Positions 12,440 through 60,411 of a stretch of DNA of 64,000 nt are shown piece by piece (position 1 is the stretch's first letter; each line of letters begins with the position of its first letter). A model generated the notes under the pieces. That model was not told where the DNA came from and did no database searches. It saw nothing but the letters and a program-made list of their open reading frames with translations. The translations under genes and the position numbers were made by a program. The stretch comes from an uncultured Spirochaetota bacterium (GTDB taxonomy: Bacteria; Spirochaetota; Brevinematia; Brevinematales; JAOACQ01), in NCBI GenBank assembly GCA_963768055.1, contig CAVYGN010000001.1, positions 1,312,001-1,376,000 of the forward strand, read 5' to 3'.

Positions 12440-12898
12440 ATGTCTAAAGACAATACTATGCATATCGATGAAAGTATGGTCGATACCGTTCTGGCAGAAG
12501 ACATTAATTTTCAGGGAACAATGAAGTTTACAAAATCCCTGATGATCAAGGGTAAATTCGAGGGTCAGATCGATGCTTCAGGCCACCTTATTATAGGCCC
12601 GAACGCGGCTGTCGGGGCTACAATCAAAGCGGGAGTCATTACCAATTACGGCCAGATCAATGGAAATGTCGAAGGCACAGAAAGGGTCGAATTGTACAAT
12701 CACGCAAAGCTTACAGGGGACATTAAGACGCCCGAAATTATTATCGAAAGCGGGTGTAATTTCAACGGCAACTGTGTTATGAGCGACAAAAAGCATGTCC
12801 AGGCGCCTGTCAGCAGCCAGGCTTCTCCACAGACTTCACAGGCTTCACAGGCCCAGAGTTCCTCAACTTCCGGCCAATCGCAAACCCATAGAAGATAA
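12440..12898 (+). CDS. Bactofilin (polymer-forming cytoskeletal protein)
   Basis: DTVLAEDINFQG...GKFEGQI...GNVEGTERVEL...GDIKTPEIIIESGCNFNGNCVM; S/Q-rich tail; GGAGG RBS. Confidence 0.9.
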   Translation: MSKDNTMHIDESMVDTVLAEDINFQGTMKFTKSLMIKGKFEGQIDASGHLIIGPNAAVGATIKAGVITNYGQINGNVEGTERVELYNHAKLTGDIKTPEIIIESGCNFNGNCVMSDKKHVQAPVSSQASPQTSQASQAQSSSTSGQSQTHRR

Positions 12899-12919
12899 CT
12901 GACAATTTAAATTCAGTCC

Positions 12920-12952
12920 CGTCCCTCACATTTATGCGGGGGACGTTTTTTT
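12920..12952 (+). terminator. Rho-independent terminator
   Basis: CGTCCCTCACAT-TT-ATGCGGGGGACG stem followed by T7. Confidence 0.8.
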
Positions 12953-12997
12953 GTACAATCGCATAATGTTTTTTATAAAAAAAGAACTGAGGATACG

Positions 12998-14088
12998 AAC
13001 CACAGATTTCACTGATGGCACAGATTGTTATTTTGGAATTATCAGTGAAATCATTTCCTAATTATTATTCCGCTAAGACATAAATGCTAAGATTCACTGT
13101 CCGGCCAGAGTGGGGGAAATACCCTACCCCGCCCTGCAACATCAAAATTTTAATGAAAAATTATAGCCACTGATACAAAATAAATTATTTTGTGATAATA
13201 TTTCTATAAAGAAAACAGTGGCTTTATAATAAACGAAAGATCAAGCCCACCTCTGCCTGGGAGTTGTATATGAAAAGAATGGAAATTTTATTGTTATTGA
13301 TTGCACTTACAGGGTGTTCGATAAGTCCAGGATCAAATTCTAATACAACTACTTGGTCTTATTCATCGGTTTCAGGAGTAATCTGTCCTGTGGGTTCTTA
13401 TTCAATCACTCCATCTAGTATCGCTACTAACCTTTTGTTAAATCATTTTGGTCCTGAAATAAAATCTAATCATACTCAGACTATTTATTATTTTTTGGGA
13501 GCAACTAATTCACTTATAAATAAAGAAGATATTAGTATTTTGTATGCCTGTGAACAAACTCCTATTATATTTAATAATAAATATCTGGATGTGGTAGATG
13601 AGCATTCATCAGTTGATAATACTTATATAGCCATTATGAACGTGGATGGTACAAATAATATAATAGCAATTATAGGACCATGAAACAGTTTCTAGAATGG
13701 TTCTTTAATTAATTAAGCAATAGAAATATGAATCCGCTATAATTGAGATCGCGTTCACATTTGCTGTGATTATTCCTTTTTTTTCCCAAGAATGCATGAA
13801 CCTAAATTTTTATCTTTAAAGAATTGATAAACAAATAGAAGTGTGCCAAAGATACCCACCATAGTCGCTATTGCATTCTCAATAAGATCATTTGTGTAGA
13901 ATAATATAAAATATGTTATCAAAGAAGATATAATCAGGAAAAATATTATGGGTCATCCGCCTGAATCATACTTAATTTGAAAAAAGTGGACATAGAAGTT
14001 ACCCTAATTATTGTCCTTATCAAAAAACAATATGGATTTCATACTGATTTCACAGATAAATCCGTGCAATCTGTGTTAATCTGTGGTT
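12998..14088. mobile_element. AT-rich cassette A bounded by 9-mer-unit inverted ends
   Basis: Left AACCACAGATTTCACTGATGGCACAGATT, right ATCCGTGCAATCTGTGTTAATCTGTGGTT; perfect 11-bp TIR; both ends homologous to cassette B. Confidence 0.65.
13270..13683 (+). CDS. Hypothetical lipoprotein (cassette A cargo)
   Basis: MKRMEILLLLIALTGC lipobox-like signal; GGAG RBS; AT-rich. Confidence 0.65.
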   Translation: MKRMEILLLLIALTGCSISPGSNSNTTTWSYSSVSGVICPVGSYSITPSSIATNLLLNHFGPEIKSNHTQTIYYFLGATNSLINKEDISILYACEQTPIIFNNKYLDVVDEHSSVDNTYIAIMNVDGTNNIIAIIGP

Positions 14089-14102
14089 TCAGTTTTGCGG
14101 CT

Positions 14103-14915
14103 TCAGTCCTCAAGTTCGAGAGTTTTTAAAAGATTCCTGAAATCATGAGGTATAGGGGCAGTTAAGGTAATATCCCTGCCTGTAAAGGGACACTTATAAA
14201 ATATTTGATACGAATGGAGCATCTGGCGGCTTACAATTTTAAGCAGCGGATCGGATATTTTTTTTAAGCCGAATTCCTTATCGCCGACTATCGGATGGCG
14301 GATTGACGAAAGGTGGATTCTTATCTGATGTTTCCTGCCTGTAACCGGTTCAACCCTGAAATAGGAGAAACCGTTCCTTTTTCCGATTAAAAAAACCCTT
14401 GTCAAAGCGGTTTTTCCATCGACTTCTCTATCAATTACAGTATTTTTGAAAACAGCCTCGTTATGCGAAATCGCAAGATACACCTTCCTTACTGACTTTT
14501 CCTTCCATATTTTTTTAAAGGCCTCAAAATATTGTTGTTTTTTAGCAAAAAGTATAGCTCCGGTAGTGTCCCTGTCAAGACGGTGGATTGCTTTTATTTC
14601 AATGTCATATCTTTTCCGTATTATCGATTCAAGCGATGCATTATTGTTATCAGAAATTATCCCTGAGGGTTTATTAACCGCTATGACAAAATCATCTTCG
14701 AAAATTACTGAAAATTCTGTGTTTATCTTTTTTTCCGGCTCGAATTCGATAATATCGCCGTTTTTTAACATATGGCCGGCCATCCATATCCGCCTGTTGT
14801 TGACAAACACACGGCGGGTATCAATGATCGCCTTTGCTTTTTTTTTTGAAATAATTAATTCTTTTGACAGGTATGATACCAGGTCAGTTTTATCTTTTAC
14901 TGTCCGGCGCTCCAT
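14103..14915 (-). CDS. RluA-family pseudouridine synthase with S4 domain
   Basis: VNKPSG, HRLDRDTTG, TGRKHQIRIH, IVGD, MLHS. Confidence 0.93.
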   Translation of the reverse strand: MERRTVKDKTDLVSYLSKELIISKKKAKAIIDTRRVFVNNRRIWMAGHMLKNGDIIEFEPEKKINTEFSVIFEDDFVIAVNKPSGIISDNNNASLESIIRKRYDIEIKAIHRLDRDTTGAILFAKKQQYFEAFKKIWKEKSVRKVYLAISHNEAVFKNTVIDREVDGKTALTRVFLIGKRNGFSYFRVEPVTGRKHQIRIHLSSIRHPIVGDKEFGLKKISDPLLKIVSRQMLHSYQIFYKCPFTGRDITLTAPIPHDFRNLLKTLELED

Positions 14916-27924: not shown

Positions 27925-28675
27925 AACCACAGATTCCACTGATGGCACAGATTAAAATTTTGGATGTTTCTGTGTAATCATAATCTAATTATTAATATCG
28001 AGTGTGAATTTTCACAAATATACAGTCACGGAGTTTTATTTATATATCAATCTTAATTAAGGGCCAGATAATGACTATCTCATCCGAATCTTAACAGCAA
28101 TTGGTCTTGGGAGTATTTTAGGAGCTTATTTTCAAAACAGATTCCAATATAAGAAAGAATTAAAAAAGAAGAATATGAATGGAAACACACAAGATATGGT
28201 GCTATAGTAATTCAAATGCTAACAATTCTACAGTTTGATAAACATGGAACAAGATTTACAAGAAAGCATCGCCAAGATTTGAATACTATTGAAGATTTTG
28301 TTGATGAACTTAAAACAGAACTTTTACACGGGATTATATTTGCGAATGACCAAGTAATAACCACTATATCTGAGTTTATTAAGAAAAAAGACTACAACTC
28401 TTATATAAAGGCCGTTATTGCTAAACGAAAAGATTTATGGGGTAAAAAAACAAAAATTACAGAAGAAATATTAAAAGATATAATCTGAATTATTTTGCTT
28501 TATCAAGTACATAGTTCCGCAATTTTATTAATGAATAATTTCTTCGAAACTCTCTGTGAATTTATTTCATTTTGTAAAAAATTCTTAGTGTTCTTTGTTA
28601 TGAGGACATAATTTCAGTTGTAATTTTATATGGATTTCACAGAAAACATCCGTGAAATCTGTGAAATCTGTGGTT
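27925..28675. mobile_element. AT-rich cassette B bounded by 9-mer-unit inverted ends
   Basis: Left AACCACAGATTCCACTGATGGCACAGATT, right ATCCGTGAAATCTGTGAAATCTGTGGTT; perfect 11-bp TIR. Confidence 0.65.
28071..28488 (+). pseudogene. Frameshifted single-TM hypothetical protein (cassette B cargo)
   Basis: Reconstructs as (M)DYLIRILTAIGLGSILGAYFQNRFQYKKELK/EEYEWKHTRYGAIVIQMLTIL...RKDLWGKK with shifts near the ATG and at the A6 run 28162-28167. Confidence 0.6.
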
Positions 28676-59984: not shown

Positions 59985-60038
59985 AAATCACAGATTCCAC
60001 AGAAAACACTGATTAGTTTTTTTAAAATCAGTGAAATC
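59985..60038 (+). repeat. Third left end of the 9-mer cassette family
   Basis: AAATCACAGATTCCACAGAAAACACTGATT-N12-ATCAGTGAAATC aligns with left ends at 12997 and 27924; marks the start of an AT-rich region. Confidence 0.7.
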
Positions 60039-60093
60039 TTGTTATAATTTTATTTTATTATTTATACCTATGCAGTTGATTCATGTAAATTTA

Positions 60094-60411
60094 TTAATTT
60101 AATACTTGTTCTATTAAATGTTCCTTTAGTATTTTAAAAAATTCATTATATTTAACTTGCCAATCTTCATCTGAAATTATTTTTCTATTTCCAAAATCAT
60201 CATATTCCTCATGCTCTGTAATCCAATAATCAACTATTTTCTCAATTTCAGGATTATTTAATTTCCCTTCTTTTTTTAAATTTTTTATTTGATCCATATT
60301 TAGAAATATTCCTAAATCATTGATTACACCCCATACTTCGTATTTCATTTCTTTGGAGTTAGTTTCAATTTTAATTACAACAATTAAAGTTATAATTGCA
60401 TGTTATTTCAT
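60094..60411 (-). pseudogene. Hypothetical exported protein with an early nonsense codon
   Basis: In-frame ATG AAA TAA CAT GCA ATT ATA ACT TTA ATT GTT GTA upstream of the 84-aa ORF 60094-60348. Confidence 0.45.

Follow-up and report, generated by a model that had tools for sequence, protein, structure and literature searches.

Cargo that encodes no enzyme of its own lies between recombination sites in the pdif (XerC/D-site) modules of Acinetobacter plasmids and in integron cassettes, the enzyme being encoded elsewhere. Miniature inverted-repeat transposable elements (MITEs) and mobile insertion cassettes (MICs), such as MIC231, which is reportedly mobilised by the insertion sequence (IS) IS231A, have terminal inverted repeats around passenger genes or around nothing, contain no transposase and are presumed to move in trans, and gene-less MITEs arise from a gene-bearing form by internal deletion. 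In REPIN/RAYT systems, which combine REP doublets with REP-associated tyrosine transposases (PMC3116915, PMC3337134), a short repeat stands in inverted copies on either side of the small gene to which it belongs, numerous gene-less hairpin doublets are dispersed between genes, and each repeat family has its own copy of the gene. The intervening sequences of 23S ribosomal RNA (rRNA) genes in Leptospira and Coxiella are small, AT-rich and sporadic, with inverted-repeat ends around one small open reading frame (ORF), and the ORF-bearing ones of Coxiella have been described as selfish elements that end in inverted repeats and whose mobility is unknown (PMC4990558). The element considered here, cassette A, which recalls each of these systems in part, is an AT-rich insert of about 1.1 kb at positions 12998-14088 of a 64-kb stretch of DNA from an uncultured Spirochaetota bacterium (GenBank GCA_963768055.1, contig CAVYGN010000001.1, positions 1,312,001 to 1,376,000; hereafter the window, to which all coordinates without a prefix refer). 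It belongs very probably to a family of repeats that frame genes of the GxxExxY family, and the best explanation, which we hold with moderate confidence, is that it descends from a GxxExxY element as a non-autonomous copy with substituted cargo and is moved in trans.

Both ends of cassette A are inverted arrays of two to four tandem 8- to 10-bp units starting RCC(A/G)C, and the same end sequence surrounds intact GxxExxY genes (TIGR04256/PF13366) in the same genome (3.69 Mb, 94.75% complete; referred to as G000, with contigs C1 and C2), namely in two intact cognate elements at C1 1510159-1510659 and C2 302887-303405. Since neither a GxxExxY gene nor a remnant of one lies between the ends of cassette A itself, it is classed as a derivative and not as a full member of the family. 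Its termini are exactly complementary (AACCACAGATT at 12998-13008 and AATCTGTGGTT at 14078-14088), and each end is made up of three direct 9-bp CAC(A/T)GAT units and one inverted unit. At the left (L-type) end, which spans 12983..13075 on the plus strand, an outer extension (about 12983-12997) and the terminal AACC are followed by the units CACAGATTT (13001-13009), CACTGATGG (13010-13018) and CACAGATTG (13019-13027), a spacer of 13 nucleotides (nt), the inverted unit ATCAGTGAAATC (13041-13052) and an AT-rich TAATTAT stretch. The right (R-type) end, 14032..14093 on the minus strand, mirrors this plan with a terminal AACC, units at 14088-14058, a shorter spacer and an inverted unit at 14046-14057 (plus-strand letters GATTTCACAGAT).

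Given these complementary termini and a G + C content of 0.314 as compared to 0.404 in the flanks, the AT-rich cassette with inverted, unit-built ends that had been proposed in a preliminary description of this DNA is real. The termini given there hold as well, but in an alignment of many copies the conserved end, (GGAAC..ACGG..)T(T/C)G(G/A)AACC, reaches about 5-15 nt beyond AACC and thus outside the earlier coordinates, so that the true start of cassette A probably lies near 12983. The reported likeness of its left end to that of a second cassette, B (27925..28675, plus strand, with the same L-type and R-type ends), is evident, although the number of equal positions in the ungapped comparison is 58 of 71 and not 59. 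Over the 47 ends of this family in G000 the units recur with a period of 9 bp in 60 of 73 spacings and of 10 bp in another 12 (18 bp in the remaining one), in agreement with the 9-10 bp originally suggested, and L-type and R-type ends differ constantly in spacer length and inner motif, for which reason they are rightly called polarised. The idea that each end is itself a hairpin applies to three of the five ends in the window, including both ends of cassette A, which fold as single strands better than shuffled sequences (A left z -3.57, A right -3.10, B right -3.12), but not to the left end of B (z -1.33) or to a third L-type end at 59986 (z -1.66). In the window, the 9-mer unit alone is not found above chance (9 matches versus 9.2 expected); the 12-mer has 16 matches where 6.4 are expected, with none of 100 shuffles reaching this number.

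The connection with GxxExxY genes, which had been brought forward in the preliminary description, is borne out by their genomic context. All five GxxExxY genes of G000 lie between inverted unit arrays, three with CAC(A/G)GAT, one with CACAGAGG and one with CGCAAAGG units, and with the two intact cognate elements the enzyme-bearing copy that had been called for has been found. Cassette A contains no enzyme of its own, as was stated, whereas the system as a whole can not be called enzyme-less. The GxxExxY family is present in 31 of 121 sampled genomes of the phylum, and flanks were scored for 31 GxxExxY loci from 24 genomes, comprising five loci in G000, two in its congener G004, seven from five distant genomes and 17 from other genomes (out of 29, the 12 omitted being at a contig edge, broken or weak matches). 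An inverted-flank score of at least 31 was reached by 25 of these 31 loci, including loci from different phyla, as compared to one of 400 random sites in G000. In addition, several gene-less mini-elements (minis) of G004 keep pieces of the start and the end of a GxxExxY gene when read by eye, much as MITEs retain parts of their parent, and are therefore taken as deletion derivatives of GxxExxY elements. All seven pairs of loci with a protein identity of at least 70% have an end similarity of at least 0.5, and in distant genomes titled NC10 and Asticcacaulis, GxxExxY genes that are 47-50% identical have CACAGAT-type arrays on both sides. Across 31 relatives, the 19-nt end pattern was matched 41 times in G000, 61 times in G004, once in one other genome and in none of the remaining 28, with no match for the reversed control, and proteins sharing 70% identity or more with the cognate GxxExxY protein were likewise confined to G000 and G004. 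As both are congeners, this co-occurrence of ends and nuclease counts as one independent event at most.

Elements with different units can lie close to or within each other. Less than 3.5 kb of G000 (C2 301858-305250) hold three sites with arrays, namely one CGCAGAGG/CACGGAGA array that stands alone and two GxxExxY elements, of the CACAGATT and the CACAGAGG type respectively, and at locus L104 (from a Candidatus Promineofilum record) the loop of a CACAGATT-ended mini hosts a nested mini with CGCAGATT/GGCAGATT units, the same genome having a GxxExxY gene that is 50% identical to the cognate protein and is framed by the CGCAGATT type.

With respect to the distribution of the ends within G000, a profile built from the five window ends was run over the whole genome (E < 1e-3) and yielded 47 ends, which form 18 convergent pairs and leave 11 ends unpaired. 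Two pairs were set aside, one being a 57-bp back-to-back mini and the other an artefact of the left end's own palindrome, and the remaining 16 enclose between 168 and 11,544 bp of DNA, which in 15 of them is lower in G + C content than the flanks (0.23-0.40 versus 0.40-0.47), the exception being the pair that holds a copy of an IS21-family element. Across the genome, the ends thus come in convergent, polarised pairs around AT-rich cargo, where unpaired and randomly oriented copies would have spoken against a cassette. All 16 cassettes are intergenic, 29 of their 32 flanks lying at most 62 nt from the neighbouring ORF and 22 of 32 facing the 3′ end of a gene. The cargo is unrelated not only between A and B, as had been noticed, but from cassette to cassette throughout the genome: a lipoprotein in A, a frameshifted ORF in B, Septu-like PtuA/PtuB genes, a methyltransferase-like ORF, three VWGxINDL proteins, small membrane proteins and two GxxExxY copies (TIGR04256, PF13366). 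The Septu-like cassette (C1 1098735-1100929, 2.2 kb) has the same ends as cassette A and encodes a PtuA-like ATPase of 452 amino acids (aa; PADLOC PtuA match with E 8e-68) and a PtuB-like HNH protein of 258 aa. The VWGxINDL genes lie at C2 83573-83887, C2 149729-150088 and C1 1372094-1372348 (window 60094-60348); their 84-119 aa products read VWGxINDL...DYWxTEHE, two of the three are oriented against the left end, and where they were scanned Pfam, NCBIfam and PADLOC gave no match.

In a search of genome contigs at large, the 19-nt pattern was found in at least 126 stretches. Since about 70 would be expected by chance (17 fixed bases, 1.2e12 positions), the raw count is not far above chance, and only paired and extended matches are taken as evidence. 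Among 80 retrieved genome loci, 62 fit the extended profile and convergent pairs are present at 28, and 42 of 53 loci on viral contigs fit the extended profile as well. The genome records with the terminus are titled Chloroflexota, Planctomycetota, Verrucomicrobiota, NC10, Bacteroidota, Ignavibacteriota, Spirochaetes and Alpha- and Gammaproteobacteria, and paired hairpin elements with it occur in viral contigs and, judged by record titles, in bacteria of eight or more phyla or candidate divisions.

That cassette A is an insertion and not ancestral DNA is very likely from the comparison of related sites. It is flanked by a bactofilin gene and a gene for an RluA-type pseudouridine synthase, its right end stopping 14 nt short of the synthase stop codon (14103-14105). 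On the left, the insertion site is bordered by a hairpin with a T-run 3′ of the bactofilin gene (12918..12952, plus strand); read by eye directly from the sequence it is taken for a terminator, as had been proposed, but it is not among the calls of a terminator scan of 12850-14250. In three species of the genus (G001, G002 and G003) and at two loci of metagenome relatives (L199 and L200), the spacer between both genes measures only 70-175 bp and is free of the repeats, so that the search for empty sites in related genomes recommended at the outset was successful; the closest metagenome relatives of the upstream gene share 84-88% protein identity, and these are hence not near-identical empty sites. 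In G004 this spacer is occupied by another mini, about 200 bp long, which is a decayed GxxExxY element oriented the opposite way, and cassette B is not present in the matching spacer of G001. Matches to the window in sequencing runs are restricted to Logan contigs of peat and freshwater-sediment metagenomes and cover parts of it, none of the listed runs being of RNA. One such contig (run X6; depth 2.5, from a strain 90-95% similar), the only one to bridge the site, joins 12952 to 14102 via 34 nt containing GGAACCACAGA, with which the left end of cassette A begins (11 nt), and this spacer may be what a deletion has left behind or may resemble a target. The bins 13168-13751 are not covered by contigs of X1, X2 and X6, which is uninformative by itself.

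The GxxExxY protein is, according to modelling and conservation, very probably an active minimal PD-(D/E)XK nuclease. Its AlphaFold model has a nuclease fold (predicted local distance difference test score, pLDDT, of 92.9), and the predicted catalytic residues E41, D71, E81 and K83 are all among the positions that are invariant in 26 GxxExxY sequences (G26, G28, E31, Y34, E41, Y59, D71, E81, K83 and Q95). A sequence search of the PDB with this protein gave no match, and its neighbours in a fold search, namely the Cas4 protein SSO0001 (E 7.6e-4), the restriction-endonuclease-like 3ijm, lambda exonuclease and Hjc, are generic PD-(D/E)XK proteins, which as judged from the model do not single out a mechanism or a substrate. 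The Rpn/YhgA-like proteins of about 300 aa, which are suspected of promoting DNA rearrangement, are PD-(D/E)XK nucleases too but form a separate family for which, to our knowledge, no framing arrays are known. In the one survey found to name PF13366, its function is given as 'Unknown', and the same table has PDDEXK_2 as 'putative transposase' (PMC3424549).

The full-length form of the family would then consist of a single GxxExxY gene inside inverted arrays of 8- to 10-bp units. Cassette A may have originated from such an element when the nuclease gene was swapped for foreign DNA, and would be mobile only with a factor encoded elsewhere that acts on its ends, with the 9-bp units as putative binding sites and cutting presumed to occur at the conserved RCC(A/G)C terminus. 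The left end may hold a promoter driving the cargo. The likeliest factor in trans would be the nuclease encoded by both intact cognate elements, its gene lying at 1510213-1510590 in the C1 copy; it would cut at the ends and leave completion to host repair or ligation. We propose this role of the GxxExxY protein as mobilising enzyme tentatively, as somewhat short of an even chance. In a wider version, a new and very widespread class of mobile elements would have GxxExxY proteins as its enzymes and need only a 125-residue PD-(D/E)XK nuclease that recognises tandem 9-bp units at inverted ends, and in some lineages, including the present one, the ends would have become a general gene-cassette shuttle that carries Septu defence systems, lipoproteins and small membrane proteins into gaps behind stop codons. 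This version is speculative and less likely than not.

With this explanation in mind, cassette A can be set against the systems outlined at the beginning. REPINs are not reported, as far as we know, to carry passenger genes, whereas the cargo here can reach 2.2 kb. The gene in question encodes a PD-(D/E)XK nuclease and not a Y1 HUH enzyme as in REPIN/RAYT systems, and the ends are tandem 9-bp arrays and not single GTAG-headed palindromes. In contrast to MITEs and MICs, there is no parent IS of the DDE type and no target duplication, and the cargo differs from copy to copy where a MIC would be one amplified cassette; moreover, no terminal repeats are held in common with a resident transposase-encoding IS, so that an origin as MITE or MIC of such an element was rejected. 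No dif-like 11-6-11 or attC site was noticed, although neither was searched for, and there are no arrays beside an integrase gene. An integron cassette was discarded because the copies are scattered singly and the nearby integrase scores 76.7 bits where the cut-off for integron integrases is 265 bits; no attC model search was made. Unlike the 23S rRNA intervening sequences, cassette A has unit-array ends, carries cargo unrelated to S23p, and sits between the protein-coding bactofilin and synthase genes and not in an rRNA helix. No printed description of these repeat elements was found in the literature searched, outside of which lie most subscription journals and supplements.

A number of observations weigh against movement by the GxxExxY nuclease. 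Enzymes of the PD-(D/E)XK type are known as hydrolases and not as strand-transfer enzymes. A profile search for GxxExxY remnants in cassettes A and B found none (best E 0.21), and a sigma-70 scan of cassette A stayed at chance level (7 found versus 6.9 expected). As claimed from the start, there is neither a transposase in cassette A (across all pairs, only the nested IS21-family copy and the IS3 copies of an integrase island were seen) nor a target-site duplication, the flanks of 15 pairs showing an inverted-repeat extension and no direct repeats. The contigs examined yielded no circle and no near-identical strain with a precise empty site. Any one genome's copies are only 70-83% alike, with conserved arms and variable loops, and therefore give no sign of a recent burst; near-identical copies at separate sites within one genome were not found, and the sole pair of minis with 98% identity has common flanks and lies within less than 600 bp, which indicates local duplication. 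Also the correlation between protein identity and end similarity is weak (Spearman 0.17, 18 of 2000 permutations being as high), a GxxExxY protein at only 38% identity shares CACAGAT units, and pairs at 62% identity differ in their units. Of the five distant genomes in which CACAGATT minis occur, three gave no cognate GxxExxY gene, which is weak evidence given that these are metagenome-assembled genomes. VWGxINDL proteins are as frequent as cargo in G000 as GxxExxY (3 versus 3). Finally, genes of the four-helix-bundle family TIGR02436, which do not encode nucleases, lie between inverted arrays at 10 of the 17 loci scored in other genomes of the phylum (L298-L316, two partial loci being omitted), with quite different units such as AGTTACA, AAAGTC and TAAAGG, and array framing as such does therefore not identify the enzyme. 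G000 has no four-helix-bundle gene.

Many of these points speak for an alternative in which the repeat family is the same but GxxExxY merely its commonest passenger, so that all genes are cargo and the hairpin or array is recognised by another enzyme or a host function. The array-framed four-helix-bundle genes, the weak correlation of proteins and ends and the distant genomes lacking a cognate gene all favour it, as do the cargo other than GxxExxY that fills most G000 cassettes and the rarity of a GxxExxY ORF within 1.5 kb of the 19-nt loci (none of 53 on viral contigs, 2 of 80 in genomes). However, no alternative enzyme emerged. Y1 HUH transposases (PF01797) had no match in G000, complete to the extent given above, with a control that was positive in 6 of 14 known genomes, the IS21-family copy is secondary to its cassette, and relatives of the integrase occur without the ends. 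In addition, distinct unit sequences coexist in G000, each around its own GxxExxY paralogue, which fits recognition encoded by the element rather than by the host, and the gene-less minis of G004 derive by deletion specifically from GxxExxY elements. We regard the alternative as less likely than the nuclease-based explanation, though still deserving serious attention.

Less probable still is that the cassette is no longer mobile and that its ends form an expression or insulation module like that of 23S rRNA intervening sequences, the left end being a promoter and the paired ends an RNA stem (a substrate of RNase III or terminator-like) by which the transcript of the cassette would be set apart from those next to it. 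The cassettes would then have spread by horizontal transfer and ordinary recombination. The tight fit of the cassettes between genes, with most flanks facing a 3′ end, is in line with such a function, as are a TATAAT-like motif conserved immediately inside the L-type ends of G000 and G004, the tendency of each end to form a hairpin, and the conservation of the arms over variable loops. Likewise, rRNA intervening sequences with an S23p ORF have inverted-repeat borders cut by RNase III (PMC4990558). TIGR02436 is the family of the intervening-sequence ORF, and it is this family whose four-helix-bundle genes are array-framed in the present phylum, too. However, the 61 pattern matches in G004 amount to dozens of gene-less copies with nothing to express, the presence of the repeats inside one genus is patchy, and the terminus is paired in many phyla (28 of 80 loci). 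Ends that are only about 80% alike over 60 bp are poor substrates for homologous exchange, and the sole match of the Rfam 15 covariance models in the window was a tRNA, 12900-14200 giving nothing close to threshold. Such a module is accordingly an improbable explanation of cassette A.

That the cassettes are mobile insertion cassettes of the resident IS21-family element or of a tyrosine-integrase island can practically be dismissed, although one end pair encloses IstA/IstB and one R-type end lies 367 bp from the integrase gene, because the ten IS21-family copies are 99.8-100% identical and have ends of their own (TGTGTCGAGG..., with GGGGAATC units), the copy in question filling only 109745-112333 of the pair on C1, as after a secondary jump into a cassette, and because none of the homologues of the integrase in G004 (74% and 57%) and G002 (68%) is accompanied by such ends within 1.5 kb (in G002, within its 2.1-kb contig), G002 having no such ends at all. 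The IS21-family element itself (2,494-2,591 bp; IstA 513 aa, IstB 248 aa) shows a probable 5-bp duplication, ATTCA, at the nested copy (C1 109745-112333), and another copy lies at C1 1308989-1311484, just before the window.

With regard to the cargo of cassette A, an ORF of 137 aa (13270..13683, plus strand) starts with an ATG at 13270, six nt downstream of GGGAG, and encodes a lipoprotein signal (LTGC). It has no Pfam family above the cut-off, a G + C content of 0.30, and is a truncated paralogue with 57% identity to the N-terminal domain of a lipoprotein, whose gene, a 371-codon open frame at C1 96963-98078, has a host-like G + C content of 0.40 and a homologue in G001, a genome without the repeats; the cargo thus has kin outside cassettes. 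The rest of the insert (13684..14031, without strand assignment) is AT-rich non-coding filler, in which the sole ORF (50 aa, 13770-13922) is on the minus strand. The 90-aa cargo ORF of cassette B (28216-28488) is probably a pseudogene in this genome, since two insertions of 13 nt and 1 nt in a metagenome contig (X2) restore a frame of 143 aa in the region of 28060-28488.

The third L-type end of the window (59986..60045, plus strand) is followed by the small VWGxINDL-family gene and then by the tyrosine-integrase island, the nearest R-type end lying beyond the window at C1 1383529. The 11.5-kb AT-rich region from L to R contains the VWGxINDL gene, a PLD-like nuclease ORF, a lipoprotein gene, an excisionase-like helix-turn-helix ORF and the tyrosine integrase gene, as well as two near-identical IS3-type copies (orfA of 160 aa with one residue differing, orfB of 342 aa identical), and resembles an integrative island which has inserted into a cassette or next to one. 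A further stretch of low G + C content (0.25-0.34) at 1-2000 has no detectable end of the cassette A family.

Ends that frame nuclease genes thus also frame unrelated passengers, including an anti-phage system of the Septu type. Should the nuclease be what moves these units, mobile elements would have an enzyme that belongs to none of the DDE, HUH, serine and tyrosine classes, and small accessory genes a way to become lodged between housekeeping genes; if it is not the mover, another factor must serve these ends. Should the wider version given above be true, a large protein family, and perhaps the ORF-bearing rRNA intervening sequences as well, would gain a mechanism.

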